A stretch of DNA of 61,282 nucleotides, counting the filler, from Dimargaris cristalligena (Eukaryota), in assembly GCA_003614675.1 (NCBI GenBank). It is 5 parts of 5 records of this genome, joined end to end, with 100 filler letters (N's around TTAATTAATTAA, not from the genome) between each part and the next. Parts side by side here need not be neighbours in the genome. Positions count along the whole stretch, not along the records: positions 49,151 to 61,282 come from ML003050.1; 4 more parts are not named here. One strand, 5' to 3'. Each line of letters opens with the position of its first letter. The first letter of the stretch is position 1. Below, one piece after another: positions 12,216 to 61,282 of this stretch. The position numbers were made by a program, and so were the translations under genes. The notes below the pieces were generated by a model. That model made no database searches and had not been told where the DNA came from. It saw only the letters and a program-made list of their open reading frames with translations.

Positions 12216-12315
12216 NNNNNNNNNNNNNNNNNNNNNNNNNNNNNNNNNNNNNNNNNNNNTTAATTAATTAANNNNNNNNNNNNNNNNNNNNNNNNNNNNN
12301 NNNNNNNNNNNNNNN
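12216..12315. other. Assembly gap (Ns plus TTAATTAATTAA linker)
   Basis: Directly visible. Confidence 0.99.
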
Positions 12316-16669: not shown

Positions 16670-16954
16670 ATGTTCAAAAAGATTTTTACAGCTATATTAG
16701 TCGGTCTGGTTGCTGGTCAGTTGTTTACGATAGTCAAAGCCGATGAAACTTCAATATTGGAGGATATTGGACCGAGAAGTGGAATTCAGCGTGCCATGAA
16801 ATTACAAGACATGAAAGTAAATGAATCCAGCTAGGGTTTGCTTGGGGATACAATGGACCATCGGTATACGCCTAAGTATAGTGGCAAAAGCCCCCCTGAT
16901 CCCTTGCTACTGAGCAAACAATACTCAAGTGTGTCCTTTTGGGCAGTATACTAA
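16670..16954 (+). pseudogene. Small signal-peptide ORF or degraded secreted-protein gene
   Basis: MFKKIFTAILVGLVAGQLFTIVKA looks like a signal peptide; TAG at 16832 is followed by 39 more open codons. Confidence 0.35.
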
Positions 16955-19384: not shown

Positions 19385-19411
19385 ACACACACACACACAC
19401 ACACACACACA
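19385..19411. repeat. (AC)n microsatellite just upstream of the 19423 ATG
   Basis: Directly visible. Confidence 0.9.
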
Positions 19412-19422
19412 TTTACACTCGC

Positions 19423-22400: not shown

Positions 22401-24516
22401 AGGGCGCCCGCGGCCCAATCGCCGAGGCAATGAAACCAAGCCGACTGTCGGGACGTCGACTGGGGGTGTGCACGGGAACTTTTACGGTCACCCGACGGAA
22501 AACGAATCGTCCTACTTTAGTGGGGTTGGGCTCCGCGAAGCCCATCTCGGTGGGACTTCTTCCCCCCAGCAACGGCAGCCGTACCCCCCTTCGCCCCTAA
22601 AATCCGTCTACCCGGGAACCGGACCCTCCCAGCAACACCAGCCGAGTTATGCTACTTCGGTGGACGACCACCCGCTCAGCCAATCCGCCCCCGTGGATCG
22701 GGTCCGTCGGCTGAAGGCTCGGCCGTCCTTCCCTGCCCTTTCCAACGCCGATACCGACGACGACGACGAAGACGATGTCCACCGGCGTCTCAGTTTCGAT
22801 ACGAAATCGTCCGGCCCGCGAAGCCAACGCCTGGCCGATTTACGTGATATCCTAGCCTCCCGCCCCGACCTGACTGACCACAATATCGTCGCCCACTTAC
22901 CCAGTGTCCACACCCCCTACGTCGGGCGATCCCCCACCCAGCCCTTCGGGGCCGCCCCAATCGACCCTACCCGGGGCGAAGGCCCCTCGGTGAATATGCC
23001 CGCCACACCTTTTAGCGAAAATGTGGCGGACCATCCCATTCTGTCCACCCATTTCATCGAACAGACCCACGAAATGCAACTCCGCGAACACTGTCACTAC
23101 CCCGATGCCGTGGTCCTTCCCAATGCCCACGAAATGCCCGAACCGAACCCCCTCGAAGGGTACCTGCTGCGGCGGCCCAAGCCCCACTCGTATATCGGTC
23201 GGTACCGGCAGATGTTCGTCATGACTTTTGACCACCACCTCGTGTGCGTCTCGTCCTACCGGGCCAAACAGTACGTGGAATCCGCCCTCCATACACCCGT
23301 GGAATCCCCCCCGCCCGACCAGCGGGACAACGATAGTATCCGTAACCCTTCGATCATTTCGTCGCACGTCAGTCAACCCCCCTCCCGCCGGGCCCAGCGG
23401 GAACCGACCCGTGACTTCACCGCACACCACCACTCCGCTTCGGCTTCGGCTTCGGGGCATCACCACCATCCCAATATTCGCCAGGTCAAACAAAAACTCG
23501 GCAGTAAACATGCGGGAGCAACCAAAGAACAGGTGATGGTTCAGCGGAATAATCCTTACGCTAATGATAATACGGTAGACTCGGCGGACTTTGTCATCCC
23601 CACCTCAATGCGGACCCGCCAACAGCGGGCCCGGAGTCGAGCCCCTTCGGCCCATCCCCGACTGCGGACATTATCCCGCTTGTTCGGCGCCTCCAAAGAA
23701 AACCTGGGCGACCTTGCCCCTGGACCGCTACTCCAGCCGGCCAGTTCGGCCTCCCCGGGGCATCTCGGATATGCCGCTACGACGTCGGGGGGAGCTTCGC
23801 TGTCCCAGATTCCTTACCAGTACCATTATAGTACCCATGCCCGGCTAGGTACTATGCTACGGCATGCGGGCGGGTTCTTTGACTTGACCCAGATTCGCTT
23901 TATTTACCCCGTGTCTTCCAGTGGGGTGTCCTACTTGTCGGATGCCGCTTCCCTCATGAATATGCCCCTGGCCGACAGTCACTCCGAGTTTGCCACAGCG
24001 GGCCATCTTGGTCGGGGTGGGGCGGGCGCTCAGCCTAACCCTTACGGCAGTTACGCCAGTTCCCATTTCCCCCACCACCATCATCGCCCCAGTAAGGGGG
24101 TGCTCGCCCGGTTCGGCGAGAGCCTTATGTTCTGGCGCTCCAAAGCCGACGAGGACCACTATACTTCGCATCCCCACCATGCAGCCCCCCCACCGGGGGG
24201 AGGAGGAGGACCCTCTCTCTATCGCCACGAGGTGTACCAAGTGGTAAATGACGGGCAGGGTCGGGAGCGGGAGGAGCGAGTCGCGGATGCGGCTTTGCGA
24301 AAGGAAACACGGTTCGATATCGTCATGAACAACGGTGCCGTCCTTCGACTCCAAGCGCCCACGAACGCCACTATGCGTGAATGGATCCGCCGACTCCTGG
24401 ACCTCCGAACCTACTGGATCTGTCGCCTCCAAGCGGATGCCCGCCACCGCTCCGAAGCGGCCCGGGTTAATTTGGGCCTCCAGATCGATACGCTGGGCTG
24501 CGAATCGGACATTCCC
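19423..24516 (+). CDS. Large PH-domain protein, Spo71/Mug56-like; 3' end lost in the gap
   Basis: About 1698 uninterrupted codons; PH segments (IHLSSRTRLSLFSSLDNSLAI, LAVCMKRFDRIDW, PNPLEGYL, NGAVLRLQAP...REWIRRLLDLRTYW) resemble fungal Spo71. Confidence 0.75.
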
Positions 24517-24616
24517 NNNNNNNNNNNNNNNNNNNNNNNNNNNNNNNNNNNNNNNNNNNNTTAATTAATTAANNNNNNNNNNNNNNNNNNNNNNNNNNNN
24601 NNNNNNNNNNNNNNNN
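24517..24616. other. Assembly gap
   Basis: Directly visible; both flanking convergent genes lose their 3' ends here, so the true gap exceeds 100 nt. Confidence 0.99.
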
Positions 24617-26073
24617 TCGAAATCAAAGTGGCACCGGTGGCCCGGGCAATACGGCGCAGATCGTCCTTGTTGCAGCGACGGACAGCAATGGCACCGGCTT
24701 CGACGAAAAGCTTCAGGCACATGTCGTCAATACCCTTGGTGGTCAGCACCACGTTGGCACCGGTGGCCAGGATCTTGCGGATCCGTTCCGTGGTGATCTC
24801 GGCCTCACTAGGGTGGTTAGGCGGATAAATAATGGTGAAGGTTAGTATTAAGATTAAACAGGAAGTCGGCTATACCACCATGTATACGGTCCATATATTC
24901 CATAAAATACGGAATCCAGTACTTACCGGCGACGGATGTCTTCCAGCTTGTCGGGGTCGTCCACCACAATGTTCACGCCCAGGTGCATGCGCACCTTCTG
25001 CAGGTTGATATCAAGACAGGCAATCTTAGCATTCGTGATACGGGTCTTCATCGCCTGGGAGGCCACGGTGCAGTTCAAGGCGTAACCCTTGACCAGGGTA
25101 CTTTCCTGGGCACTCTGGCCGTGGGCCTTCAAGATGTTCACCGACTTGACGGGGTACTTGATTTCACCACTCTGGTTGGTGGTCTTGACGGCCAGCATGG
25201 CATCCACCACCATACCGGCGAAAAACTGGGAGTGGGTCCCGATGATCTTACTGGCCATACTGGTCTTGGCCACGTTGACCAGGCAACCCCGGCCCAAAGC
25301 TTCGGTCTTGGTGGTCAATTGATCCGCAATGAACTTGCAGGCCTCCTTACTGGCCAGCCGGTACCCGGCGATCACGGTGGTGGGGTGGATTTTGTTCTTG
25401 ACCAACTCGTTGGCCCGGCGGAGCAGTTCGGAGGCAATGATCACGACCGACGTGGTACCGTCACCGACCTCTTCGTCCTGACGATGGGCGAGTTCAACCA
25501 GGACACGGCCGGCCGGGTGCTCGACTTCGAGTAGACTGAGGATGGTCGCTCCGTCGTTGGAAATGGTGACATCGCCGATTTCGTCGACTAACATCTTATC
25601 GAGACCAACCGGTCCGAGGGAGGACTTGACGACGTTGGCAATGGACATGGCGGCCATCACTAAATCAAGGCCGGTGGATAGACGGGGGAAGGGGAGGGAG
25701 TCAAATAAAAAAGAGGTTAATATCGTACGAGGGAGGCACCTTAAGCGATATCTCGTTGGTAGAGTGCTTGGGGTAGGAATAGACCCACCAACCGCTAGGG
25801 GCCAGTCGGGGAAGCAACTCGCGGATCGTTCATCTGTTTTTGGGTAAAGGCCACTAACCCGAGCCCGAGGATTTCCTCCACTCGAACCGGAGTCTACTGG
25901 CCGATGGCCGAGTATCGATATCCTGGAATGCATATCCAGCCTACGCAGAACAATTTCTTTAAGTGGTGCTTTGCAGGATGACTTCTCTTACCGTTCTGGG
26001 CGCGAACCTCGGCACCGGTGGTCCGCTCGCCGCCGATGGCCAAGGAGTTGCTTGAACTATCCTGGGAATACAT
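24617..26073 (-). CDS. TCP1: T-complex protein 1 subunit alpha (CCT1), 3' partial; exons 26073-25992, 25659-24927, 24807-<24617
   Basis: Motifs [43 protein letters not shown] donors and AG acceptors keep the frame. Confidence 0.95.
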
Positions 26074-36794: not shown

Positions 36795-36894
36795 NNNNNN
36801 NNNNNNNNNNNNNNNNNNNNNNNNNNNNNNNNNNNNNNTTAATTAATTAANNNNNNNNNNNNNNNNNNNNNNNNNNNNNNNNNNNNNNNNNNNN
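36795..36894. other. Assembly gap
   Basis: Directly visible. Confidence 0.99.
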
Positions 36895-38993: not shown

Positions 38994-40412
38994 TTACATG
39001 GAGGATGCGGCGTGGAGGCTGAAGGTTTGAGTGGAGGCTGAGGAGTATTGTACATGGCTAGTGTAAGAATGGTGTTGGTTTAGGGGGGAAGGTACTGATC
39101 CATCATTGGCATGGGGGAAGGGATAACCCATGTAGACCGAGGTCAAAGTGGGGTCCGAGTGGAGGAATCCGGCCTGGTGGGTGGTGTTCAAGGGCAGCGT
39201 GCGGGGGGTGACCATGTCCGCTTCGAGCGAGTGGTGGAGCTGGTATGCGTTCATCTGGGAATCGTTGGAAGTCACGGACGGGGCCAGAAACGCCGGTCGG
39301 GGCAGGAGGGGTTCGGTGGGGGTGGCTGTTCCCATTGACGCGGACGTGGGCCAGTAGGGGGACGACAGGCCCATGGGCGAAGAAGACACGGGGGCCAACG
39401 AATCCATCGAGGGCAGCGTGACCGTCATACCCCCCAGGTGGGAGTACTTGTCGGGGTGCAGTCGACGCTGAAGCAGACCGGAAGCGGTGGGCGAGGTGGT
39501 GGATGACGACGAGGCCGGTGGGGATGCGTAATGCGCGCTAAAATAGGCATTGGCATCGAGGGCATGGGTGGACGAACCGGTATGGTCCGTAGGCGACTGC
39601 GGTGAGAGTGTAGAGAAGAAGGCCATCGGCGGCGTGGCGTACAGGGAGAGGTTCAGTGCATTGGCGGGGCTGGGCAGCGAGGGGGAGGTGGGATCAGTCG
39701 AGAATCCCGGCATAGTGGTTGATCCAACGAGGGTGGTCCCCGACAGTGGACTAGTGTTCCCCGAAGACAGTAGGGTTCCCCCACCTCCTGTGGCCGCCGC
39801 CGCCGCCGCGGCTGCACGGGTAAAGGCGGACGGTCTGCCTCGGAGTGACGTAGGTGGATTACGGTGGTGGGGGTGGAAATGCCCCTGGGTCTTGTTGCGC
39901 GTTCGGAGGGCCTGGCGCTTGTTTTGGAACCAGATTTGCACCGTGCGGGGGGTCATGCTCAGCTGTAAGGCCAGCTGTCGACGTACTTCGGTAGAGGGGA
40001 AGTACGTCTGTTCAAAAACCTGATTGAGGACATGGACCTGTTCGGGAGTGGCCCGCTTTCTCTTGGCCTTGAGCACAAAGTTAAGGGGCACCTCTTCCTC
40101 GTCCTCATCGAAAGTCAGGGCGTAGTTGGGCGGGAGCGCGGAGTTGGTGACCATGGTGCAAGACGATGACGATGAAGACGACGACAGCGGCAGCGGAGGA
40201 GGGCGTGCCATGGGTGGCTGCCTGACTAGGCCTCCCGTGTACTGATTGGGGCTGAGGTAGGAGGGAGTCGAGGTACTCCCCCCGCCCGCGATGAAAGATG
40301 CCTGGTCAGCGGGTGCTAAGTCTTTGATACTCATAGCCAAAGTTCCGTAGGGGGGCAGTGGAGAGGCGCAGCCACTGGAAGCCGGAGTGGGGTAAGGTAC
40401 CGAGGAATTCAT
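38994..40412 (-). CDS. Homeodomain transcription factor (Yox1/Yhp1-like), 472 aa
   Basis: KAKRKRATPEQVHVLNQVFEQTYFPSTEVRRQLALQLSMTPRTVQIWFQNKRQ within Ser/Pro-rich low-complexity sequence. Confidence 0.9.
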   Translation of the reverse strand: MNSSVPYPTPASSGCASPLPPYGTLAMSIKDLAPADQASFIAGGGSTSTPSYLSPNQYTGGLVRQPPMARPPPLPLSSSSSSSSCTMVTNSALPPNYALTFDEDEEEVPLNFVLKAKRKRATPEQVHVLNQVFEQTYFPSTEVRRQLALQLSMTPRTVQIWFQNKRQALRTRNKTQGHFHPHHRNPPTSLRGRPSAFTRAAAAAAAATGGGGTLLSSGNTSPLSGTTLVGSTTMPGFSTDPTSPSLPSPANALNLSLYATPPMAFFSTLSPQSPTDHTGSSTHALDANAYFSAHYASPPASSSSTTSPTASGLLQRRLHPDKYSHLGGMTVTLPSMDSLAPVSSSPMGLSSPYWPTSASMGTATPTEPLLPRPAFLAPSVTSNDSQMNAYQLHHSLEADMVTPRTLPLNTTHQAGFLHSDPTLTSVYMGYPFPHANDGSVPSPLNQHHSYTSHVQYSSASTQTFSLHAASSM

Positions 40413-41716
40413 TTTTTTTATTTTAGATCTGCGAACGATAGATTAACCGATGGCTGTACAGTCGACTTGGCCGAGTCTCAAATTTATGCAAAAACAATTA
40501 ATAACTAGGAGATCAGATAAACGGCGAGGATCGGCACGAAGTGAGGACAGTAAGAATGTAAATATTGGGAAGTACAGTTACGAGAAAAGGGGGTCTCTCG
40601 TTGAATAGGAACACAACTATGGAATCAGTGAAGCTGGGGGAGGGGTAATAATACGACAAAGGATGGGGAAGGGTACAGCTAATTGACTGTCTAAAGTCAT
40701 TGGCAGATACAAGTGGATATCATCGTTAGAATTGATTTAGGAAGCAATGGTCCGTTCTTTTTATATTAATTGGCCGAGCGGGTAGGAAATGAGCTGAACG
40801 CTTGGACGATCCCTCACTCTCTGTTCTTGAGCAGAAAACTAGTTTTGAAATCAACTGGGCTGCCCTTTTAGTGATTGTCCCCCCACCCAACCAATTCCAT
40901 CACGAATCCCTATTTGTGGAGATTGGTGGACGTGGGGGTGACTTCATTTACGAGATGATTGTAGTTTACATAGCCGACACAGGGTGGGGCGCAGAAGGTG
41001 CAAGGCGGACTAGACACAGGGAGGTGGAGTGGGAATATAGAGGGGTAGGTGGAAGGGGAGCATACTCAGTCACACCCATCATGGCGCCTTGGTGGTCACT
41101 GTGGGGAGTCGGGGTTGCTAACGCTATGGTTGAACGGACAGAGAACCGAGAAAACCAGGATGACCGCCCAAGGCGCTGAAGGGAAGTCTGAGAGGGGGGG
41201 TTTCGATACCAGGGGGTTAGAGAGAAACCCCCCACTAACTAGAGCATGTTGGTGAGCGAGGGTGAGGGAGGGGGTTGGGGGCAAAATTAACGCCGGCTGA
41301 AATTCCACACAGAAGGAGATGGATGGTGGTGATACTAGCTTAGTAGCGATTTGCGAGTATAGTCATTTTTTCTTCGATTTAGAAGTCTTATTTCCACTGG
41401 TGGGGTGTATTTGACCTCAGGAGTAAGCAGGAGGAAGGACTAGGGACTAAAGGGGGTGGCTCATAGGCACCAAGTGGCATCGCATAATGTGAGGTATATG
41501 TGGGGTTTAGTTACTCGGGGTACTCTAATTGATGTATTAAACTATATTATTCTATTACCCGCCACCACTCCATGGCCTTACATGAATCGGTTGGTTGTAA
41601 TACTTCCCATTAAATTGCACAAGGCTCCGTCATTCTAAGGCCATCGATATGTAGTGAGTTGGTTAGGGTCATCGATCTGGTAAGTGGTTGGCCAAACATG
41701 GGCCTGGGGCTAATAC

Positions 41717-47699: not shown

Positions 47700-48899
47700 T
47701 CAACACAAATGTCTTATTAACCCATTATATTTCCCCCTCTTGACTTTATTGGCTTCATAAGCTCCATTCACTAATTTAAATGACCCATCCATCTCTTTGG
47801 GAGTGCTAAAGATGGGCATACTACTATACCGAAATAAAGAAGATTTGATACCTGCGGTGTCCCAGAGTCTACCACATAAAAAGCCCTGGTTACCTGTGAA
47901 GAAGTGCGCAACTACGGTTTGGAGTTTGGCATTCCACTCCAATGTATAGAGGAGAGAAGGTGATTCCAGGCCGGATCGATGTTTATTTCGAAACTCGGAT
48001 AATCTTGCCAGATTGTTATCGGGCCCTCTGGGCTTACGGGTACGATTAGGGCGATCGGCTAGCTTTTTATCGCGTTTCACCCGGGCCCTGTGTCTGCGCA
48101 AAATTTCCTGAATATGGAAAGTAACAGAGTAACTAACGTCGGGATAACCTTGGGAAAATGCTTTTCCGGAAAGCATAACACAGGTATTAAAAAACTCTTT
48201 TTCGGTTATGAGATCGGAAATGTCGTCTTCTGATGGCTGTGCATATGGCATCCAGCCATTGGCACCTTGGTGTTGTTGATTGCCCTTTTGGATACGAATC
48301 GGGCCTGCCGATGATGTGATGGGGTGCGGCTGCTCACTAGCTCGATCGTCTACTGTCCCTGGTCCATTGTGCGGATATGTATAGTCAGGTTTCCCAAAGC
48401 CGGTAGAGATCGCGAAATTTGTAGGATAATTCTGTTAGGGAAACGCATTATCCCAGTAGCCCGACGGGGTTGCAAAAGTTGAATGCGGGTTATTATCAAA
48501 GCCAGCCGGAGTATTCTGGTAGGTGGTAACCGACCTGCCCTCGCCGTCGTATGTCGTCCCTAGCTCCCCGCCCTGTTGGTTATAGCTGGTATTAACCTTG
48601 AAATCTCCTGCTTGGCACTCGATGAGTGGAGGTAGAGGAGGTGCCTGACCCATCATGGTATTAGGGTAATCCTGGTCCCTGGTTTGGTCCACTGTCGGAG
48701 GTTTGAAGAGATCCCTGGGGGACTGAGCCCAAGAAAGAATGCCTTTCCCTGGAATATAGTCGCCTATCTGATATACATTTTGTTCGGTAGATACCTGGGC
48801 TGGGTTCACGCTATATTTGCCGGTCGCTGAAATGGAAACGGCGAGCGACAGAAGGCAGGTTACGGCGACTACACTACCGGATAGCTTGGCAACCGACAT
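47700..48899 (-). pseudogene. Secreted-protein gene (400 codons) with a single in-frame TAA at 48437-48435
   Basis: Signal peptide MSVAKLSGSVVAVTCLLSLAVSISA; ORFs 48435..48980 and 47700..48251 share a frame, and the 61 codons between them are open. Confidence 0.7.
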
Positions 48900-49050: not shown

Positions 49051-49150
49051 NNNNNNNNNNNNNNNNNNNNNNNNNNNNNNNNNNNNNNNNNNNNTTAATT
49101 AATTAANNNNNNNNNNNNNNNNNNNNNNNNNNNNNNNNNNNNNNNNNNNN
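49051..49150. other. Assembly gap
   Basis: Directly visible. Confidence 0.99.
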
Positions 49151-50078
49151 CATTTAATAGTCAATATCTATCAAAAGATAATCTGCACGATTATAACGTC
49201 TTTACCTTGGCCCTATCCCACACTAGTCCGAATTGTAATATAAACCTATTCCATACCAACACCCTGTGACATAATAGGCATTTGCCTAGGCCCAGCCGAT
49301 TAAAAAGACTATGTAACTGAATCATTACATTGAACTAAAGCCCAGTTTAGTTACTAACAGTGCCTTTCGTGTATTGGCAGATGCAAAGTGGAGTTGCCAT
49401 TACTATTCCTGGATAACCCCACTAGTGTTATCCCAACTATAACTATTTCCCTTCCAGATTATTTTTTTGTTTATATTTATATGGCTACCTAATATACCCC
49501 TCATACGCCCACTTCAAATAAGGGCTCGGGTTTAGGTACCTATATAATGATATCCCGGCGCGTGTCATCCATTAGTAATACCCGGCCGAGAGAGTACCTA
49601 CACATATATTAGTAATATCCCATTAGATTATTAGTGCGGTTTACCACTTCGACATTTAGAATGAATGAATGAATGACACATAAGTGATATATAGACGGTG
49701 TCAGAAAATCTCGTAGTCACTCTACAGGGATAGCAATTGCTACGTCGGTGTTTACCGATACTGAATAATGTACTTTAACACATCAGCAAAAACCAACACC
49801 ACTGGGCACCAACTGTTTACCAACCACATAATGGCCGTGACTATTTCAGCTATAAGGCCCACTAGGGAACAGATGTAATAATTTAACACCCACAACTAAA
49901 TAGTAAAATGTATAGAGAGTGAAAGATTCACCAAGAATATAGAGGAGATTAAAAACAGCCGCATATGGATCTGAGGGAAGTATATTTGGACAGGCAGAGT
50001 GAAAACATATATAAGAGCCGACAAAGCATGGTCTGTTAAACTGATTGGTCGCCTAGTTACTGGCCTGACCATATTTAG

Positions 50079-50990
50079 CTAAGCGGACCAAACAAATTTA
50101 GACATAGACTGTTCCAACAGCCCCTCGGACTCCTTGAAAGACAAAATAGCATTCTCACCGTCCTTGACCAACTTGAGGAACTCCGACCTGCGAACACGAA
50201 GAGCTACAATGGGCTGACCACCGTCCGCGGGCCTGTTTACGATGAAATTCTCCGAGTATCCTAGGCCGCTGTAGTAGGCTTCGGGATCAGGAAATGTTCG
50301 AGATACATCAAAAGGGTTATTCTTGATATGCATTACAGCATTGTTATACCCGAGGAATCGGGCGCATAGGAGCGGGTTATCACCACGCCCTTTGAATATT
50401 TTGATTGTCTGACTAAACAGCTCTTCAATATCGAATTCCAGCACCATAAGACCGAGAAAAATTTTAGTCACCTTCCTATACTCATGATCGGGGAACTTGA
50501 GCCCTTCGCGATACATTGCTTTCATAGTCTCCAAATTGCCATAGCGGGCTGCGAGGGCGAACAGAAAAGGTAGAAACTTTTTGAAGTAGAACGTGTCCAT
50601 GATAAGGCTCGACGCGGGAAGAACAGTCACTGTGCTATTGGCGGGCGGGTTGTACTCTGTGGTGTAGAGTCCAAGGCTTTTGTAATCTTTTTGATGCCAG
50701 TTGTAGATATCAGGATACACACTACCGTTCAGGATACCAGTGAGCCATGGGAAGGCGGCCTTTCGCTGATTAACGTCCAATGCATCGTAATTAGCATATA
50801 CCCAATCATTATATGTCTTACTCTTCTTGTAATCTGATTCAGAATACAGGAGCGAGAATTTGCCGGTTGTTGTATTCTGACCATACTTTTTGCCAAATTC
50901 CATCCCAGACGAACCACTTTCCAAGGGAGCCAATTGACTGAAGAATATATCGGCTGGAACTTCTCTCTTTCTAGAACCGTCAGCCGCCAT
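50079..50990 (-). CDS. Hypothetical protein (303 aa), possibly the last exon of the upstream secreted gene
   Basis: Long ORF with an ankyrin-like helix pair LFALAARYGNLETMKAMY; preceded by a TACTAAC branch motif (~51058) and an AG at ~51006 in frame with the ORF. Confidence 0.65.
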   Translation of the reverse strand: MAADGSRKREVPADIFFSQLAPLESGSSGMEFGKKYGQNTTTGKFSLLYSESDYKKSKTYNDWVYANYDALDVNQRKAAFPWLTGILNGSVYPDIYNWHQKDYKSLGLYTTEYNPPANSTVTVLPASSLIMDTFYFKKFLPFLFALAARYGNLETMKAMYREGLKFPDHEYRKVTKIFLGLMVLEFDIEELFSQTIKIFKGRGDNPLLCARFLGYNNAVMHIKNNPFDVSRTFPDPEAYYSGLGYSENFIVNRPADGGQPIVALRVRRSEFLKLVKDGENAILSFKESEGLLEQSMSKFVWSA

Positions 50991-51189
50991 GCCGTGGGAG
51001 TCGTACTATTGTTATTAATGGGTTGGTTAATTGAAAAATAATGAATGGTTGGGTTAGTAAAGCATCTAGCGGAATACATATAATACCTGTGTGATACGGG
51101 TAGCTGGTGATAGAAGTAAATACAGTCAAACTAAATTATGCGATATTGCCGAAACATTTATTTTCCGCATAAAGACAGATTGCCACCTA

Positions 51190-52149
51190 CTAGTATGATT
51201 TATAAGCAAGTACATTTCTAGGTAAAGAGAAACCAAAATCAGAACCTACTTTATCGGGTATATCTCCGGATGTAGGTACTTTATGATAGAATACAATAAC
51301 GTCATCGTCGTCATCGTCATCATCGTCGTCGTCGTATTCGTCCTCGATATCCAAATTCTCCTGAACAAATTCCTCTTTTTTAGGATATCCGTTTTTCATA
51401 TAGTTTAAAGGCTGAATCTCATATCACTTCGCCGGAGAGGGGGCTGGGGGAGCAGTGGGGGGATGAATGCGCGCGAGCTCTTCGGCCTCATTGATTTCCT
51501 TATAGAGAATCCCATCCACAACGACATATCCATTTCCCAGAAATTCTACAACAGGTAATTCGGGTGTTGTATTTACCAAGTCTTCAACACGATTGGGATA
51601 GGAAAATTCGACCATTTCCGTCGTACGAGGATCTGGACTGGAATTAGCGGCCGTGTCTTGAGTCACGCTTCCAACACTATCTTGAGGGCCCTTTTCGACA
51701 TGGTCTTCACTCCGATGATTGTTCCCGGTTAGGTCCTCAATATTAATATCACCGCCGCCATCGTCATTAAAGTTATCGAGCACCTCCATTTCTAATTCAT
51801 CAGCATAGTTGTGGCGATCGTCATGAAACGTACCGAGTACCTCCATTTCCAATTCATCAGCACGATTGACATTAGAACCGTCGGTTATTTCCGTCGTACG
51901 GGGCTCTAGACCGACATTGGTAGCCCCGTATTGAGCCATTCCGCCGTTACGGCCTTCAGGAGCCGGATCCTGCCAGCCCTCCTCGTCAAGGTGATCGGAT
52001 GCATCGAAAAACTCGGTATCATCACCCCAGTCAGTATTCAGCATTAATTCTGAAGGGGGGCGGCCTAGGCTGACTGGTTGGGGGCGACATGCAGCATAAA
52101 GAGCCATGGATAGGCTCAGTACCGGCACCGAAACAAGCGAGGGTCTCAT
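51190..52149 (-). pseudogene. Secreted acidic protein gene with in-frame TGA at 51426-51424 (or an intact 241-aa CDS ending there)
   Basis: Signal peptide MRPSLVSVPVLSLSMALYAAC; the frame continues PAK*YEIQPLNYMKNGYPKKEEF into a poly-Asp tract. Confidence 0.6.
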
Positions 52150-53411
52150 GGTGGACGGGTTGGAATCAAAGGGAGTGGATATTGGGCGGGCGAAGAAAAA
52201 AAGAACTGGCGATAGGCCTCGGTAATTTGGTAGCTATGGTTAGCAAAGACACTCTGCGGTAGACAGAATGTGGTATTAGACACAAAATAGGGCGTTGTGT
52301 TAAAAATTTAATTGATAAAAAAAGGGGGGATGGGCGTCTTTATATATTCAACCGGGATGTCAGTTGATTAGCTGAGTACTCAAAGCCCACTTTCCACCCG
52401 CCTAGAGACGGTAGACGGCAAACGGCAAACGGGGGCACTCGCCCTACAGAGGCTGGTTGTGGTGCGGCCACTCGAGACCAACCACATTAGAGGCAACGAC
52501 ATTTGTATCCCCGGACCAGCGGACTGTGTCGTTGAGGATATTCATTTTTAGGCCCATCAGGCACCCTGTTGTTTCTTTTTACCTTTGGTATCATTTTCCA
52601 GGTGCATCTATGGGGCCGGGGACTGCACCCCGTGCCTTAGGAAGCCTTGTTTATCACCAAGGCCTACCATGGTCCCATTCATTGGTGGTACAAAGGACGC
52701 ACTGCGAATTGGCCATTGTTCAAGACCACATTTAAAAGGCTTGATAAAGCTGCCCTTTGAGGGCTCAAAGGTGGATCCCGCACCCGACTTGGATTCACCG
52801 AATGGCTGGGTGCAGGGAAAGAGGGTCCGTGGCTCGATTATCAACCCTTTTTCCTAACCACGCAGCAGCCAATAACTGTGCAAGACCATTGACCAACCAT
52901 ATCAAGGGGTGCATTCCGAGTGTAATCCTCCTTTCCCCCCAAACAAGGCGAAATTTGTTTGTGTTCACATTTAGAGTGCAACACTGTCCTTGGACTTACA
53001 CAGCCCAAATACTGCCCATGCATTATGAAATCTGGCTCTTTTATGGTATTGGTGGCAGTCCATCCCTCTTTCACCTTGGATGTACAATCAAGGAGGTTTG
53101 TATAACCCAGTCTCTTTCATTTCCCTTCTGCTAGGTAGCAAGTGTCTTCCAGCAACAGCTTTTTGGTGGGGAGGTTGTATATTGTACAGTTGTTAGTAGC
53201 CAGTCACTAGGTCTAACCAAAGTATTTGCTGTCTCTCCCCATAAAAACCACTATCCACAAATTGTAAATCTATACTAAGCCTTAATGCAATAAGTAGAAA
53301 GTCCATGTAATTTGAAATCAACCAATACCTTAAATTGGGATTTAATATTTTTATAGATGACTGGCCTTCTCTGGGAACCACTGTCCTTAGATTCTGGCAG
53401 CCTACCATATC

Positions 53412-53608
53412 TGTCACCTGGGTTAACCACTCTTAGTCTATCAAGAGTCCTGAGGATAGGCTTCTAATAGTAGGCAGTGCTTAGATATAGCCAAGTGGGC
53501 TACTAGCATCAGGTATAGGGTATAATACTAACTAATAAAGGCTAACTAGCAGGGATAGGTAAGGGATCTACAGTGGGCACACTTACTAATCAGTATAGGG
53601 GGAGTGAG
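53412..53608 (-). mobile_element. Truncated LTR copy
   Basis: Starts TGTCACCTGGGTTAACCACTCTTAG; interrupted by a second copy. Confidence 0.8.
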
Positions 53609-53897
53609 TGTCACCTGTGTTAACCACTCTTAGTCCATCAAGAGTCCTAAGAATAGGCCTCTAATGGTGGATAAGGCTTGGGCTTGGCCAAGTGGGTCAC
53701 TAGTATTAGGTACAGATATGGCACTAACTAATAAAGGCTAAGTGCAGGTATAGGCAAGGGATATGCAGTAGGCATACTTACTAGTCAGTATAAGGGGGAT
53801 GAGTATATATAGGGTTTATTAGGGGTAAACTAGGGGTAGGAAATAAGCTGAAGAATCTAACTAGTCCCAATGGGGCCCAGTTATATATATGTGGGGT
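53609..53897 (-). mobile_element. Nested or tandem truncated LTR copy
   Basis: Starts TGTCACCTGTGTTAACCACTCTTAG; ends abruptly at the 55-bp duplicated segment. Confidence 0.8.
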
Positions 53898-55507
53898 GTA
53901 AAGACGTTATAATCGTGCAGATTATCTTTTGATAGATATTGACTATTAAATGTAAATGCATACCACCTGAAATAGTATCTGTTGTGCTTAATATTCGATG
54001 TGATTTAAGCCAGCATGTCGTTAAGGACTAGGCACCAGCATTGCCTAGTTCCATCAATGAGGTGCGGGAATTCTCCCTTGTCGACGGATCACCTTACTTC
54101 AACCATTCCCACCACCCTATTCATCTACTACATATACCCGCCCATTATTACCTAACATTCATATTACCATCTAGTAGCGTCTTCCAGCACGTTCTGCGCT
54201 TGTTCAGCGCGGTTATCCTCAGCCTGCTCAGCTTTATAAAGCGGATACAATTCTTATAGCTGATTCTTAAGTTAATTGGAGTGCATTCCATACCCCCTTT
54301 TATTAGCTAACTCAACCTATCACAATCTCTCATATGTGCTACATATAAAGCGCCCTTCGTACCACCTATTTGTATGTTCATTCTTACTACTCATGCTAGG
54401 CATATGCTTTTAGTCACCCGCGGGAGTATTACATACGACAGTGTCAGCGGGCGAACGATCTTACCTTAGAGGCATATGTCAACATTTTATGACTTATCTT
54501 AGCACATGTATACTGATAAATGCACGGGTTGAAATCAGGCCCGAGTTGAGGGGTCCAACCATTTTGTACTATAATACATCTGCGCCAAACTTAAATCACC
54601 TCTTTCACTAATATTTAGGCTGGCGGCTGGCGCCTCTGCTAGTCTTTCGAAAGATCATACTGATTACATTGAAGAGAGAAACAGTTCAATTTTTTGTAAA
54701 GAGGATACTGCTATAATAAAAAAGGGCAGGGCTTCTGGTCGCCCTTAAAGGGTTCTAGGCAGGGACAAGTCTACTCTGTCGACCCTGACATTAATAAATC
54801 AGTCAATCAGTATGGTCTATGCTTTTGGTTGGCTATGGTATAGGGCGAGGGGTTTTGCCAGCCGCCTTGGTTGTAAGGATCAGGTCTGGTCGAAAGGCGG
54901 TATTTCAATTCAGTCAACGTGCATCCCGACCTGAGGTGTATTCCACCAAGGGTCTGCCGGTGAATGTGAGTCCATCAACTCCTATTTGTTACAACTAAAT
55001 GTGTTAATATATTATAACACACCCCTGGTCGGATATGCTCCTCGCCAAAATGGGTGGACGTAAGGCGTCAAAACAAGTAGGCGGTATGTTTCCCTTCCGA
55101 CCCCAACCTATTCCCAATCATTGGTTGCAATCGCACGAATTCTATAAGGCTTAGCGTGGCGAGAGTATCTCGTATACTGTAGAGGGGATATCAGTTTTCA
55201 TACAGGGGTATCTAAACTGATGGACTCTCAAAACTACCGATTGACCGTCGTAGGCAAGTCTAGGTGCCCCAAAAATAACTTGCCCATATAGTCAGTACGA
55301 CCAATACTATTTGGTGGCTGCATTCCTCTACTAGTTTCCAGTACTATAGGATTGTCCTGGCGATGGTCCCTGAATTTGGCCTTAGCAGTATCTGAGACTG
55401 CCACCAGGGGCTGCTCCTCCTACAGGCATCCGAACTAGTACCGTACTATGCAACAGCTCCATTGGCGAGCTTGTTAATTTCGATCCCTTCTACCACAGAT
55501 GAAGCCG

Positions 55508-55514
55508 TATAAAA
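55508..55514 (+). promoter_or_regulatory. TATA box of peptide gene 1
   Basis: TATAAAA ~150 nt upstream of the ATG at 55661. Confidence 0.5.
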
Positions 55515-55660
55515 GGCGGACCCACCTCCCTCCATTTTTTAAATATTATTAGTATTACCACCACTTCCATCAGCTTAACCACTGCCAGCCCCACCCGTTC
55601 TTCTCGTTAGTTCGATAACCACCCTACACCCTCAACCCACTACCACTACACCCTATCAAT

Positions 55661-55957
55661 ATGCGTTTTTCCACCGCCATCGCTCTCTTCGGCCTTGCCG
55701 TTATTGCTTCTTCCGTGATCGCCGGCCCCGCTGATGCCGAAAACGGTATGGCTTCCCTCGAAGACGATGATATGGAAAATGTTGGCCTGCTCGAAGGCCC
55801 CCTTATTGGCAAACGCGACTTCCAGCAGACCAAGGAGAAGTCCGGTATGATTGGTCTCCCCATTATTTTCGGCGCCAAGGGCCAGAAGACTTGGTTGCAA
55901 CGCCCTGGTCAGGTCAAGGGTCATCGTCATGGCAAGGGATACGGCCGAAAATACTGA
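55661..55957 (+). CDS. Small secreted prepro-peptide 1 (98 aa)
   Basis: Signal peptide, acidic pro-region, KR, then a 46-aa cationic peptide; C-ending codon bias; AATAAA at 56051. Confidence 0.85.
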   Translation: MRFSTAIALFGLAVIASSVIAGPADAENGMASLEDDDMENVGLLEGPLIGKRDFQQTKEKSGMIGLPIIFGAKGQKTWLQRPGQVKGHRHGKGYGRKY

Positions 55958-57018
55958 TTTTCCTTCTAGTTTCAATCGCCATTATTAGGACATAACTTGT
56001 CGTAAAGAGTACCAATGAAATATTCAGCCACCTATACCTAACTCGATTAGAATAAAATAATTGATATATTCCAAAATGGCCTCTTCTATGTTACTAGTTA
56101 GATCGGGCGTTGATTATGAGGTCTAGCTGACATTACGATTTCAAGACGGCACGACTAACGGCGTTGCTTATGGAATAGCACTATGAACGAAAACAATAAC
56201 CTATTACGTTTTAGTGTATTATAGTGCACTCTAAAATTACGAAACAACTAATTTTATGAGCTCTAAGGGCTGCGTGGCTTTATGCGCCCAGTCAATTTTG
56301 AACTCGTGGTATTTGCCCATGGCTCTAATGCAAAAACTGCTTAACTCCTCCCCGGAATTTACAGTGACACATCATTTGGCTAGTCTCTTGGCGAGTATTT
56401 CGTTATTTCCGGAGTTGATGTAGACCCCAGTACACAAGCTAAATAAATAAATAAAAATAGCGCTTACACAAGGAGCTCAATGCTAGATCATCGCATCGAA
56501 TTTGCCAGGGCCGATTTTAATGCAGAATTGCACAGTTTAGGCTACACTACCTATTTTTTTTCCATGCCCGAACTAGAAATTTCCACAAAAACCGGTTGCG
56601 TATTTAATCGAGTGTTAGCAATGGCACGTTCCGAATAGATAATAAAGATAGGACCGGTATCGCCCCTGCTATTATTTACAGCCCCTGTCTATTGTACCGG
56701 ACTCTGTTTTGCTTATATAATGGCACGGAAAAAAGATAAAGGTGAACCCATGGGGCACTGAGATAGCTATCGGATCCCAATCTGACATACCATGTCAATT
56801 AAAATAGTACTCTATCCATCGTCGCTAAAACCAATGCTGTATTTCCGTAAGATGCCCATTACCAACGCTGTTTTAGGCCAAAAATAGCTGTACCTTTTGG
56901 TGTCAGCTTGGGTATATTTCTAGCACTCTTTAGTTTCCTGGGCTTAGTTGTAATTGTAAACTTAAAAAAGGCGGGCAAATAAAGGACGACCTTTTTGAAA
57001 TACGGTCCTCTTAATTCG

Positions 57019-57026
57019 TATAAATA
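57019..57026 (+). promoter_or_regulatory. TATA box of peptide gene 2
   Basis: TATAAATA 150 nt upstream of the ATG at 57169. Confidence 0.5.
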
Positions 57027-57168
57027 GTTGATCTCGGTCTATCAATCTTCTATCCATATCCTTCCACTTCACTTCTCTGCACCAGCATTCTATCTCCACC
57101 GCTACCGGTACTTTTACACCCCGTACCCAACCGAACTTTCCTCGACAACCTTGCGATACCGCTACACC

Positions 57169-57447
57169 ATGCGTTTCTCTACCACTCTAGCCCTCGTTGC
57201 TCTGGCTGCCTTCGTTAGCCACGCGAATGCTGCCCCCTCTCCTGCCACCGGTGCAGAGGCTGAGGCCCAAATGGACGACGGCGAACCCGGGGTGATCGAC
57301 TTCGGCGACTCCGACGGCCTGTTCAAGCGCGATTTCCAACAAACCAAGGAAAAGTGGGGCTGGTTCGGCATTCCGATTGTTTTCCATTTCGGTAGCAAAA
57401 GGACCTGGTTGGACTCGAATTCCGGCTATGACCACCATTATTACTAA
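57169..57447 (+). CDS. Small secreted prepro-peptide 2 (92 aa), paralogue of 55661..55957
   Basis: MRFSTTLALVALAAFVSHANA signal, acidic spacer, KR-DFQQTKEK core; AATAAA at 57526. Confidence 0.85.
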   Translation: MRFSTTLALVALAAFVSHANAAPSPATGAEAEAQMDDGEPGVIDFGDSDGLFKRDFQQTKEKWGWFGIPIVFHFGSKRTWLDSNSGYDHHYY

Positions 57448-58546
57448 TTTCGCCATACACTGGCACCCCAATGCCCATCACAGTGTGATGAAAGTCACGC
57501 GTATCTGAGCCTCTGATCCTATTTCAATAAATGGTTTATTAAAGTCTGTGCGCGAATCTGGTTTAAGGAACCCGTCCCGGCTATTTGCAATGGTTTAATA
57601 GACGAGGCACATGGATAAATTAGCCGAGTGCTGCCCGTTCATTAATCGGTCCATTTCGACTAACAATGGTTAATGGTTAAGGGAAAGGGGGGACCCACGC
57701 CCGGTGGCTCGACGGACAGACCCCATACGGGGCGGCGTCCGGAACTCTACCGGGCACGAATCCAGGTCCAAATATTATCCCAGATGGGGGCCATAGGCCC
57801 CCGCCGGGAATGTAAGTAAGCCAAAGAGGCACGGAACTCAATCCGCGCCCGGGGTGTGTATCCTTACTCGTTGGTTTTGGCAGGGAATCGATGGCCTTCC
57901 ACCCTTACCCTGGGATATAAATAAGAAGCAGCCAGTGGCCTTCCAATGGTAGCCTGCCGCCCTAATGGAGTTGTGGGACTTGGGAATATTGTGGGATTCT
58001 AGCCCAGAGGGAGAATGCTTTACCTTAGTTATGTATAATATACATACTCGCTCTTTAAACGGTAGACTATAAGAAAGGACGGACTACACACCCTACTTAA
58101 CATGCTACTGGTATTTGGGAATGGGAGGTATTTAATATGGCAGTTGCCCTGCTTTCTACTCGGGGGAACCCTGTAACGGCGCCCCTTTTAGGAAAATACG
58201 TGGGCGTGAATACTACGGATACTAATAAGAACCCCCCATGGATGAAGTCCGACAACCCTCGCCTGCCTGAGTCAGCCATATCCGCCAAACCTAGTCCCAG
58301 CGTCACCCAAGGAGCCCTGCAGAGTAGACTTGGCCCATCTGTTCTAAACACTGGCACATTGAGGACCTTGGCCGCTCGCCTCCTCTTCATCTCCGCCCCC
58401 TTTACATTCCAACTTTGGGCCCTCTAATTCCTTAATTCACTTCTTCCTCTTCTCTTCTCCTTAGCTCCTCCGCCCTACCTTCTCCATCTGACTCGTTTGG
58501 CCATCTATTACCACCCCACCCCCTTTATCTCTTCACACTACTTGCC

Positions 58547-59854
58547 ATGGCGTCGGCCATTTTCATACTGGATCTTAAGGGCAAGAGCCTCATTGCCCGG
58601 GACTACCGAGGCGATGTCCCCATGAGTGCCGTCGAGCGCTTTATGCCCCTCCTGCTCGAGCGCGAGGAGGAGGAGCAAACCGCCATCCCGGTCATGACCG
58701 ACAAGGGCATCAACTACCTGCACGTCCGCCACAACAATCTCTACCTGCTGGCCCTGAGCCGCAAGAATTCCAACGCCATGACCATTTTGCTTTTCCTCCA
58801 GAAACTCACCGAAGTCTTCGCCGAATACTTCAAGGTACTGGAGGAAGAGTCGATTCGGGACAACTTTGTCATCATTTACGAGCTGCTCGACGAAATGATG
58901 GATTACGGCCACCCCCAGACCACCGAAAGCAAGATTCTGCAGGAATACATTACCCAGGAAAGCCACAAATTGGAAGTCCAGGTGCGACCGCCCATGGCCG
59001 TGACCAACGCCGTGTCGTGGCGGTCCGAAGGGGTCAAGTACCGTAAGAACGAGGTGTTCCTAGACGTGATCGAGTCGGTGAACTTGCTGGTCAGTTCCAA
59101 CGGCAACGTCCTCCGCAGCGAAATTCTGGGCGCCATCAAAATGAAGTGTTACTTGAGTGGCATGCCCGAACTGCGGCTGGGTCTGAACGACAAGGTGATG
59201 TTCGAAAACACCGGGCGCTCCGCCACCCGAACTAAAGCCGTCGAGATGGAGGACATCAAATTCCACCAGTGCGTGCGCCTCTCCCGGTTCGAAAATGACC
59301 GGACCATCTCGTTTATCCCCCCCGATGGTGAATTCGAACTCATGAGCTACCGGCTCAACACCCAGGTCAAACCCCTGGTGTGGTGCGAAACGGTGGTCGA
59401 GACCCATACGGGGCGGATCGAGTACATGATCAAGGCCAAGGCCCAGTTCAAACGGCGATCCACCGCCAATAACGTGGAAATCCAAGTACCCGTGCCCGAT
59501 GACGTGGACACCCCCCGCTTCAAGTGCAGCATCGGGGCCGTGGCCTACGCCCCCGAACGCTCCGCCCTGGTGTGGAAAATCCGGCAGTTTCCCGGGGGTA
59601 AAGAAGCCCTGCTCCGGGCCCACTTTGGCCTGCCCAGCATCAAGAACGAAGACCCCGAAAAGCGACCCCCCATCTCCGTCAAGTTCGAAATTCCCTACTT
59701 CACCGTGTCCGGGATTCAGGTTCGCTACCTCAAGATTGTTGAAAAATCGGGCTACCAGGCCCTGCCGTGGGTCCGGTACATTACGCAGAATGGCGACTAC
59801 CATATGCGGATGCCCGATAGTATCAAATCGAACTCCCGTCTGCCACCTATTTAG
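58547..59854 (+). CDS. APM1: AP-1 clathrin adaptor complex mu subunit (435 aa)
   Basis: MASAIFILDLKGK, EESIRDNFVIIYELLDEMMD, YLSGMPELRLGLNDK, KFHQCVRL, FIPPDGEFELM, YQALPWVRY. Confidence 0.96.
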   Translation: MASAIFILDLKGKSLIARDYRGDVPMSAVERFMPLLLEREEEEQTAIPVMTDKGINYLHVRHNNLYLLALSRKNSNAMTILLFLQKLTEVFAEYFKVLEEESIRDNFVIIYELLDEMMDYGHPQTTESKILQEYITQESHKLEVQVRPPMAVTNAVSWRSEGVKYRKNEVFLDVIESVNLLVSSNGNVLRSEILGAIKMKCYLSGMPELRLGLNDKVMFENTGRSATRTKAVEMEDIKFHQCVRLSRFENDRTISFIPPDGEFELMSYRLNTQVKPLVWCETVVETHTGRIEYMIKAKAQFKRRSTANNVEIQVPVPDDVDTPRFKCSIGAVAYAPERSALVWKIRQFPGGKEALLRAHFGLPSIKNEDPEKRPPISVKFEIPYFTVSGIQVRYLKIVEKSGYQALPWVRYITQNGDYHMRMPDSIKSNSRLPPI

Positions 59855-61282
59855 TATTCAGACACCCGTCGGGTTTTTTGGTACCCCTCTACCTCCCCAT
59901 TCTTTCATTCCCCCTCGCCCCACTCCCCCCACCGCCGCTCTTACTCGAATATCCGAATCTTATACGGGTCGCTTGGTCAGTGGTGAACCTCACCTACCAG
60001 GGGTCTGTGTTGGCCTTGGGTACAATGGGTCGTATAAATTAACATCATCTTATTCACGGGTGGGTGCAAGAATTATCAATGGATTTCTGAACGGTACATT
60101 TTTATCAGTAAACTTAAAGCTCCATTATCAAGTACTAAGTAATCCATCCTGAAACTGAATCAAAATGGTGTACCAACGCTGGGTCATATATACATTACTA
60201 GCTTCTTTTCGTAATTGTCTACGTTTAGGCTGAGACATGCAGACGGTCCCACTAAGGAATGACATGGGCCTTGCACCATACTCCTCCAATTAGCGGATGA
60301 TTTACTTGAAAGGTATACCTTTTATTTATTCATATATTCTAACAGGTTCGCCTTACTAGCGGAAATCAATCTAACTGGCTAAACCTATAACAGTTAGGGT
60401 AGATCGGGGCTTGGGGAATTGGCCAATTATGGATATTAGGGGTGAAATGTAACTAAAGGGTTGAAATGTCTTGGGGTGGAAATTCAAATATCGAATTATT
60501 GGATAAGACTACGCCGGTGATGGCTAAATGGCAATGATAGGCCATACTCAATTAAGCAGCGGGGGTGGGAGCTGGTGCTTGGGAGCGCTTGAGGATCCAG
60601 CCGACCCAGTGTTCAATAACCTCCTCCTTATTGGGCTCATTGTGCACTATTCGACGGTTCGATTTTCGGGTACAAGAATTTATTGAGGAAGTGTGGAAAG
60701 GTATCAGGAAAGAAATGTAAGTACTTGATTAGTTGGTGTATAGATCGGCCAAAGTAACCTTAAGGGGGATGGCATTTTTAATAGGCAGTCATATATAACT
60801 ACTGGTATTGAAGTAGTTTAAATCAGCATAGTACTTACGTTCATGTAGGCAATCGGGGTACCCCTTATACTCCTTATCCAGAGAAGCCGGCAATTGGTCG
60901 TGAAATTCCTTGGTAGTTTTGGCACTGGTTATAATTTAGCATAAAGGCGGGACAGGATAGATTAGTCTCCATAGGCTTGAATAATAAATCTAATTGGATT
61001 GGATGTCAGATCATTGTCCGTGGAGGAATGAGGAGTCACATGTTGGATTTAATGTAACGCTCCTTCGCTGTATTTACACAGCGCACCTATAGATTGGGTT
61101 ATTTTTACATAATACTTACTTGGTGGTGCGATCGATTTCACCATGGGTTAACAGCACGGGTGTAGTGACATGCCCCAGGCCTGCCTTGATCATAGCCGGA
61201 CCAACAGAAAACATGTCGCCAACTATTGTAAAGCGCAGTAAATTGGTCGGGGGGGGGGGGGGGGTACAAAACAGGGTTGTAA

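Follow-up and report, generated by a model that had tools for sequence, protein, structure and literature searches.

Two short genes lie in tandem on the plus strand of a 61,282-nucleotide stretch of Dimargaris cristalligena DNA (GCA_003614675.1), five parts joined end to end, which we call the window. Both fall in the part that comes from ML003050.1 (positions 49,151 to 61,282). Gene 1 encodes a protein of 98 amino acids (aa) and gene 2 one of 92, each in an uninterrupted open reading frame (ORF), and 1,211 nucleotides (nt) separate the stop codon of the first from the ATG of the second. Each protein reads as a prepropeptide: a signal peptide, an acidic pro-piece, a Lys-Arg (KR) pair as predicted site for a Kex2-type convertase, and one mature peptide composed of a conserved 27-aa head and a variable tail. 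The features of the two genes are listed here; strokes mark predicted cleavages, and P0001 and P0003 are relatives described below.

55661..55957, plus strand: gene 1 coding sequence, 98 aa and stop, intronless, single-unit prepropeptide (ORF scan, BLASTP, homologues, codon statistics)
55661..55723, plus strand: predicted signal peptide of gene 1, aa 1-21, in which MR precedes 20 uncharged hydrophobic residues and a V-I-A/G (-3,-1) site, by rule of thumb
55724..55810, plus strand: acidic pro-piece of gene 1, 29 aa, net charge -8, weakly conserved (alignment, charge count)
55811..55816, plus strand: Lys-Arg of gene 1, predicted Kex2 site in the context I-G-K-R/D-F, with Ile at P4
55817..55897, plus strand: head of mature peptide 1, conserved 27 aa (DFQQTK...KTWL), 26/27 identical to the first unit of P0001
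55898..55954, plus strand: tail of peptide 1, 19 aa, basic, His/Gly/Tyr, ending K-Y, homologous to the unit tails of P0003
55508..55515, plus strand: TATA-like element 153 nt ahead of the ATG of gene 1, with a C/T-rich leader after it; weak evidence when taken alone
56051..56056, plus strand: AATAAA of gene 1, 94 nt past the stop
57169..57447, plus strand: gene 2 coding sequence, 92 aa and stop, intronless, single-unit prepropeptide (ORF scan, BLASTP, phmmer)
57169..57231, plus strand: predicted signal peptide of gene 2, aa 1-21, A-N-A/A site, by rule of thumb
57232..57324, plus strand: acidic pro-piece of gene 2, 31 aa, net charge -8 (charge count)
57325..57330, plus strand: Lys-Arg of gene 2, predicted Kex2 site, L-F-K-R/D-F, with Leu at P4
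57331..57411, plus strand: head of mature peptide 2, conserved 27 aa, with a second K-R at 57397-57402 where 11 of the 12 other units have Q-K
57412..57444, plus strand: 11-aa tail of peptide 2, acidic and rich in His and Tyr, with Y-Y at its end (unit dissection)
57019..57026, plus strand: TATA-like element 150 nt ahead of the ATG of gene 2
57526..57531, plus strand: AATAAA of gene 2, 79 nt past the stop

The original prediction for this locus described two intronless genes about 1.2 kb apart, each with a TATA box some 150 nt upstream and an AATAAA downstream, an MRFST start, a KR site, a His/Tyr/Gly-rich tail that ends in Tyr, and no cysteine. All of this is present in the sequence, and the KR codons and the residues that follow them are exactly where and what they were said to be. 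The predicted sizes and charges also hold: mature peptide 1 has 46 aa and a net charge of +8, mature peptide 2 has 38 aa and a net charge of 0 together with its second KR, and neither has a cysteine. The TATA-like elements are the softest of these features. TATAAA occurs 67 times in the window on both strands, against 58 +/- 8 in shuffled sequence, so only the matching position before the two genes carries weight, and it does so weakly.

The two genes are related

At the protein level genes 1 and 2 align over most of their length (BLASTP E 5e-20, 38/94 identities), and the likeness is unevenly spread. Identity is 8/31 in the aligned pro-piece, rises at the KR to 16/27 in the head, and drops to 2/11 in the aligned tail; the jump in conservation at the KR is as predicted, and the signal peptide is conserved too (11/21). 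The nucleotide differences follow the same pattern. The proportions of nonsynonymous and synonymous sites that differ (pN and pS) are 0.25 and 0.85 in the head and 0.29 and 0.80 in the signal peptide; in the pro-piece they are 0.56 and 0.51, and in the tail 0.71 and 0.65. The head and the signal are under purifying selection, and their synonymous sites are saturated. Codons ending in A are avoided in the peptide genes (a share of 0.09) just as they are in four larger neighbouring ORFs (0.11-0.14). Sequence comparison indicates that the two genes are real and paralogous.

The duplication is old, and no extended conserved block was found between the upstream regions of the two genes. A tblastn search of the window with five family proteins as queries revealed no third copy at E < 0.01. 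Rfam and tRNA scans of the window were empty, and a repeat scan of 52000-58500 gave nothing relevant. The head that selection has preserved comprises a charged DFQQTKEK, a short Pro-centred hydrophobic stretch and K-x-Q-K-T-W-L.

Relatives in public proteins

An exhaustive phmmer search with peptide 2 against 1,835,955,588 cluster representatives returned seven proteins at E <= 0.001, of which four (P0001 to P0004) were accepted as relatives and three rejected. P0001, a hypothetical protein of 167 aa from D. cristalligena with two units, was the sole relative found by a word-indexed search (E 1.1e-41, 64% identity). P0003 (434 aa) has six units and P0004 (236 aa) has three. P0002 (202 aa) corresponds to the gene 1 and gene 2 locus itself, as modelled in the public annotation.

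No named family matches these proteins. Pfam gave no match for either protein, a profile search of the PDB returned only osteocalcin precursors by way of their signal peptide (E 0.07-0.11), which we reject as noise, and in the ESM Atlas the whole protein reached a best feature score of 0.78 while its mature part had no usable match. The earlier statement that the core belongs to no recognised sequence family thus stands. Judged from these searches, the family is narrowly distributed and without a named sequence family.

The three rejected proteins deserve a brief account. P0006 and P0007 are peptidases of bacterial type with FG-GAP repeats, and they resemble peptide 2 alone: residues encoded at 57295-57430 align to their FG-GAP blades (PF01839/PF13517) with 32-34% identity over 41-52 aa, across the KR site. 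Profiles built from the 13 family units described below, with or without peptide 2, score P0006 and P0007 no better than shuffled or reversed copies of them. Since the likeness is not shared by the family profile, it is most likely due to chance. P0005 scores 53.8 bits against the profile, over seven weak stretches in which a short P-I-I-F segment is multiplied by repetition. To judge by its sequence, it looks like the translation of a single short DNA repeat in all three frames, which would make it a chance match amplified by repeats.

Units and predicted processing sites

How regular is the family? We counted units in five precursors, those of peptide 1 and peptide 2 together with P0001, P0003 and P0004, by cutting each at the dibasic sites that precede the head motif. 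This yields 13 units, distributed 1, 1, 2, 3 and 6 per precursor. A dibasic pair stands before every one of them (KR in six, RR in seven), and the residues that follow it are D-F or, alternatively, N-F, D-L or G-I. The position four residues before the predicted cut (P4) is Leu or Ile at all five junctions with the pro-piece, in agreement with the aliphatic preference published for Kex2 at P4 (PMC8528282). In peptide 1 (1/1), P0001 (2/2) and P0003 (6/6), all KR and RR pairs of the proprotein coincide with unit starts. Extra pairs away from unit starts occur in peptide 2, which has one, and in P0004, which has four in an Arg-rich tail. At the N-terminus all five precursors have MR, an uncharged hydrophobic stretch of 15-20 residues and, by a heuristic, a site at residue 21 with small residues at -3 and -1. 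These counts agree well with the expectation that the locus holds two distinct genes for prepropeptides, both intronless and both with a Kex2-type site.

The far ends of the units are also regular. Tyr is the last residue in 12 of the 13 units and is preceded by Lys in ten; lengths run from 38 to 76 aa, with 12 units between 38 and 55. Within P0003 the heads of units 2-6 are near-identical, as are those of peptide 1 and P0001 (26/27), while the tails drift. The heads of peptides 1 and 2 differ at 11/27 positions, and the mature charge by 8 units. In tblastn the units of P0003 align to peptide 1 through its last residues, up to 55954, so the tails are homologous, if fast-evolving. Internal units, once trimmed by a Kex1-type carboxypeptidase, would end in K-Y just as terminal units do, which suggests that the product is the entire unit with its tail.

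One gene or two

The public model P0002 treats the locus as a single gene. Its translation is identical to that of 55661-55907 joined to 57086-57447, with one further feature in between:

55908..57085, plus strand: spacer between the genes, treated by P0002 as a 1,178-nt GT..AG intron

A precursor of 202 aa with two units, spliced across 55908-57085, is conceivable to the extent that the GT..AG pair and the open frame exist, the spliced translation equals P0002, and two-unit relatives such as P0001 are known. What speaks against it is what splicing would remove and what it would create. ORF 1 continues beyond the splice donor, and P0002 drops its end, the KY-stop tail typical of the family, which aligns to the tails of P0003. 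In its place P0002 gains a linker that is merely the translated C/T-rich leader of gene 2 and has no counterpart in the relatives. Each ORF opens with the family signal peptide, and in the fusion a second complete signal peptide and pro-piece end up buried inside the protein. Inside the supposed intron lie both the gene 1 AATAAA and the gene 2 TATA-like element, at their expected distances. An intron of 1.2 kb would also be long for a fungus. On these sequence features the fused model is probably an annotation artefact, and a true single gene is highly improbable.

Charge and predicted structure

Most units are cationic: 11 of the 13 carry a net charge of +4 to +8, within an overall range of 0 to +19. 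It had been proposed that the pro-piece masks this charge. In three of the five precursors the pro-piece and the summed units come close to balance, at -8 and +8 in peptide 1, -12 and +11 in P0001 and -29 and +26 in P0003, whose six units stand behind a pro-piece of 99 aa. The proposal breaks down in peptide 2 (-8 and 0) and in P0004 (-10 and +29).

Structure prediction, proposed with the earlier reading of the mature peptides as membrane-active beta-hairpins, found no fold beyond the signal helix. For the peptide 1 precursor AlphaFold2 gave a mean predicted local distance difference test score (pLDDT) of 53 with that helix as the only secondary structure; for P0003 the pLDDT was 42, again with the signal helix only and with no folded repeat domain. 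The pro-pieces (aa 22-50 and 22-52) have a pLDDT near 50 and no secondary structure. With alignments as shallow as these (five rows), a missing fold is weak evidence. A complex prediction for four copies of mature peptide 1 (score 0.01, mark 0.32) speaks neither for nor against self-association. Amphipathicity gave no better sign of a hairpin or helix. The maximal hydrophobic moments of both mature peptides, at 100 degrees for alpha and 170 degrees for beta, were matched by 184 to 971 of 1000 shuffles. The sole hydrophobic stretch is about eight residues long and centred on Pro; in P0003 and P0004 it includes one or two Asp, and the first unit of P0003 lacks it.

These results bear on two rival accounts of what the peptides do. 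The first is that they permeabilise target membranes as a lytic amphipathic beta-hairpin or helix, in the manner of candidalysin. Candidalysin is a hydrophobic amphipathic helix. The peptides described here are hydrophilic, rich in Pro and Gly, and not amphipathic; they show no helix in the models and a moment at the level of shuffles. For a lytic account one can cite the charge of +8 on peptide 1, the acidic pro-piece, and the short hydrophobic stretch followed by a turn-like Gly/Lys segment and T-W-L. The precursor of candidalysin, Candida albicans Ece1, is also alike as a KR-bounded polypeptide that yields a secreted bioactive peptide (PMC7329392). Against it stand the moments, the models with neither strand nor helix beyond the signal peptide, a hydrophobic stretch that is short, broken by Pro and absent from one unit, and the neutrality of peptide 2. 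Without a fold and with amphipathicity no greater than in shuffles, the beta-hairpin or membrane-lytic reading is unsupported, and the Asp within the hydrophobic stretch of relatives fits it poorly. We consider it improbable.

The second account is structural: the peptides might be surface-active or adhesive and coat hyphae, spores or the zone of host contact, with tails rich in Tyr, Lys, Pro and His that adhere or bind the cell wall. Hydrophobins are known as a trait of the Dikarya, so that a fungus of the Kickxellomycotina would need a substitute. A precedent exists in Rep1 of Ustilago maydis, from which cuts at Kex2 sites release ten Cys-free peptides, 34-53 aa long, and these assemble on aerial hyphae into amphipathic amyloid fibrils (PMC3133707). 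The 38-55 aa of 12 of the 13 present units are similar in length, and multiplied units and tandem genes would suit bulk production. The resemblance lies in unit size and in the predicted release by Kex2, and the chemistry appears to differ. The peptides studied here are hydrophilic overall, no amphipathicity was detected in them, their beta moment does not exceed that of shuffles, and Pro in the middle of the hydrophobic stretch, with flanking Asp in P0003 and P0004, also counts against the account. This account is quite unlikely.

Placement among known precursor classes

Kex2-processed repeat proteins (KEPs) are defined by a signal peptide and internal repeats with Kex2 sites between them (PMC6339444; PMC7329392). 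They are very common and for the most part genus-specific. A census counted 7,878 in 1,345 of 1,461 strains, sorted into 838 types and 2,560 stand-alone proteins, and the Zoopagomycota are the phylum densest in them, at 11.56 per strain (PMC7329392). Table S2 of that census gives 11 KEPs for D. cristalligena GCA_003614675.1, all stand-alone (type 0) and listed by accession only, three of them with consecutive numbers. The four supplementary files of Le Marquer (PMC6339444) contain neither Dimargaris nor the head motifs, and a literature search found no paper containing both Dimargaris cristalligena and Kex2.

Because the relatives have two, three and six tandem units bounded by KR or RR, we place the family in the KEP class. 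The claim of a candidate new family therefore holds only in part: no named sequence family contains it, but the architecture is already published and widespread in fungi. The pipeline of Le Marquer sets a minimum of three repeats (PMC6339444), which P0003 with six and P0004 with three reach, while P0001 with two and genes 1 and 2 with one each fall short. Going by unit counts, the most fitting description of the window genes is that of single-unit homologues within a KEP family; they are not KEPs by the operational rule. With one unit per gene, they would escape both published KEP pipelines.

With KEPs and the yeast alpha-factor precursor the family shares the signal peptide, the pro-region, the units preceded by KR or RR and a sequence confined to a lineage. 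It differs from KEPs in having one unit per window gene, units of about 50 aa with a long basic tail, and a strongly acidic pro-piece; P0001, with two units, is like some alpha-factor genes, whereas the Ste13 spacer of the alpha-factor precursor is not present here.

The likeness to alpha-factor raises a third account, in which the peptides are signals (pheromone-like, quorum or developmental) sensed by the producer or its mate, with the head as ligand and the tail as a spacer that is possibly trimmed. The precursor architecture of signal, pro-region and KR-bounded, near-identical repeats is equal to that of alpha-factor (PMC6339444). Near-identical heads within units 2-6 of P0003 and between peptide 1 and P0001, with drifting tails, are what a ligand would lead one to expect, and the hydrophobic moments reveal no lytic features. 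Several observations are difficult to accommodate, however. Units of 38-76 aa compare with 9-24 aa for known alpha-type pheromones (PMC6339444). The KR is followed by D-F rather than by X-Ala or X-Pro dipeptides of the Ste13 type. The heads of the paralogues differ at 11/27 positions and their charges by 8 units, and strong cationicity with a charge-matched acidic pro-piece is not a pheromone trait. We regard a signalling function as unlikely.

Precursors with a single product are known as well. The Kex2-processed pro-domain (K2PP) effectors of plant-pathogenic fungi, which the window genes equal in format, release one mature product from behind a disordered pro-domain that ends in an L/I-x-K-R-type site; they are folded proteins such as SnTox3 (PMC8528282), whereas the present products are short Cys-free peptides without a predicted fold, and repeat forms exist. 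The pro-pieces fit the K2PP description of a pro-domain (disordered, in the first half of the protein and ending in KR, RR or LxxR), with I-G-K-R and L-F-K-R at their ends. Another parallel is found in frogs. Precursors of the dermaseptin superfamily, among them the phylloseptins, have a 22-residue signal, an acidic pro-piece of 24-26 residues ending in Lys-Arg and one C-terminal cationic peptide (PMC3742671). The frog peptides are short amphipathic helices of unrelated lineage and sequence, and the comparison is one of analogy only. In composition the tails are also similar to other peptides. Histatins, plant shepherins and nematode NLP/GRSP peptides are cationic antifungals rich in His, Gly and Tyr, and dibasic cuts free some of them from precursors with several units. 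None of these is related to the family in sequence, and the conserved part of the present peptides is the head, which is not His-rich, and not the tail.

A fourth account would make the proteins precursors of peptides made by the ribosome and modified after translation (RiPPs) of the ustiloxin or dikaritin type, with Tyr-containing parts cyclised by enzymes encoded nearby. Precursors of the ustiloxin type are defined by a signal peptide and Kex2-bounded repeats (PMC7329392), and Tyr is conserved at the unit ends. In 36 further stop-to-stop ORFs of the window that were scanned with Pfam there was no DUF3328/UstY, tyrosinase, methyltransferase or P450, although exons split by introns could hide one; with no such enzyme domain in the scanned ORFs, a RiPP cluster is not apparent. 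Units of about 50 aa are not the short cores of such precursors, and none of the 185 Zoopagomycota KEPs surveyed in Table 1 of the census had a DUF3328 neighbour (PMC7329392). A RiPP origin is hardly probable at all.

Surroundings in the window

Distances given here run along the joined stretch. The domains recognised by Pfam in these 36 ORFs are housekeeping or regulatory: the mu subunit of an AP complex (58436-59854), a homeodomain, TCP-1 and an SPO71-like PH domain. The homeodomain gene (38994-40442, minus strand, PF00046, E 1.5e-15) is some 15 kb away from the peptide genes. In some fungal mating loci such genes adjoin those for pheromones; here the proximity may be coincidence, with nothing linking them.

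On the minus strand between 47700 and 52233 there are four ORFs of 244, 197, 308 and 269 aa with no Pfam match, and an ORF at 48435-48899 on the same strand has a signal-peptide-like start. By the look of its N-terminus this may be another lineage-specific secreted protein, in a region that ends 3.4 kb upstream of the peptide genes (52233 to 55661). A 54-aa ORF on the plus strand at 16670-16834, with a signal-peptide-like N-terminus, could be a first exon or a small secreted peptide. Between gene 2 and the AP-mu gene, the G/C-rich segment 57670-57880 has an unexceptional RNA fold (z -1.82, equalled by 12 of 200 shuffles) and no Rfam match.

Two further observations concern composition. The G+C content is 0.54-0.63 at 18000-26000 and about 0.40-0.46 elsewhere, and this island coincides with an uninterrupted ORF of 1,727 aa that has the SPO71-like PH domain. 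Blocks of N at 12216-12315, 24517-24616, 36795-36894 and 49051-49150, each of two 44-N runs around 12 bases, recur every 12.28 kb or so. They look like masking, not like a biological feature; one breaks the end of the 1,727-aa ORF and adjoins the TCP-1 gene.

Proposed processing and function of the peptides

The processing that we propose follows from the parts of the precursor. The 21-residue signal peptide would bring the precursor into the endoplasmic reticulum. The acidic, fast-evolving pro-piece (29-31 aa, net -8) would keep it soluble and near neutral in transit, until a Kex2-type convertase in the Golgi cleaves after [L/I]-x-K-R. In the multi-unit relatives a Kex1-type carboxypeptidase would then strip the trailing RR or KR and leave ends in K-Y. 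The presumed outcome is the release of linear, Cys-free and probably unstructured peptides, of 46 aa (+8) and 38 aa (0) in the case of the window genes, each a conserved 27-aa head with a rapidly diverging basic tail of His, Gly, Pro and Tyr. This account of architecture and processing, read from the sequence, is very probable.

What the peptides do is a more tentative matter. We lean to extracellular cationic peptides aimed at other cells, either antifungal or antimicrobial agents or effectors at the host interface of a mycoparasite, and we hold this as possible rather than probable. The lean is founded on several features. The units are cationic, and the more positive charge they add up to, the larger is the acidic pro-piece; the layout is like that of the frog antimicrobial precursors (PMC3742671); the tails diversify fast, and both genes and units have been multiplied; and the sole named relative comes from a haustorial mycoparasite, as the Dimargaritales are (PMC9866270). 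Listed beside these is the lack of a predicted folded repeat domain in six-unit P0003. If the lean is correct, our best guess at a mode of action is binding or uptake, not an amphipathic pore. When processing and function are blended into one account, we consider that account somewhat probable.

A number of points weigh against it. The signal peptide and the cleavages are predicted by rule of thumb, and the KR within the head of peptide 2 could split that peptide. Charge is out of balance in two of the precursors, those of peptide 2 and P0004. The models offer no structural pointer to membrane or target binding, since the moments are at shuffle level and no fold is confident. The antimicrobial or effector lean is drawn from composition and analogy, and a conserved head with a free-running tail would be expected equally of a receptor ligand. 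Finally, the narrow distribution is judged from sets of predicted proteins, which often omit small ORFs.

A more specific form of the same idea, which we think somewhat unlikely, is that the family is a peptide weapon or interface factor directed at the host by haustorial mycoparasites of the Dimargaritales. The peptides would be mass-produced from charge-neutralised polyproteins or from tandem single-unit genes and released at the zone of host contact, and the cationic, unstructured products would bind or enter the host fungus. If true, this would be the first family of peptide effectors or antifungals in the Zoopagomycota and a new, non-amphipathic antifungal scaffold.

Precursors of the KEP type abound in fungi, and function is known for almost none of them; in Coprinopsis, KEP knock-outs gave no detectable phenotype (PMC9769878). 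The present family makes a compact test case, drawn from a lineage that has hardly been studied. Its head is sharply conserved and its predicted ends are clear (DFQQTK... to ...KY), and it combines single-unit and multi-unit precursors with a pro-piece that scales with cationic load. If the producer is mycoparasitic, the peptides would be cheap to make and to try on host fungi. The family also bears on how such peptides are counted. Gene merges of the P0002 kind would conceal single-unit peptide genes from surveys; as single-unit forms escape the published pipelines and annotation merges neighbouring genes, current counts of these peptides in early-diverging fungi are probably too low.

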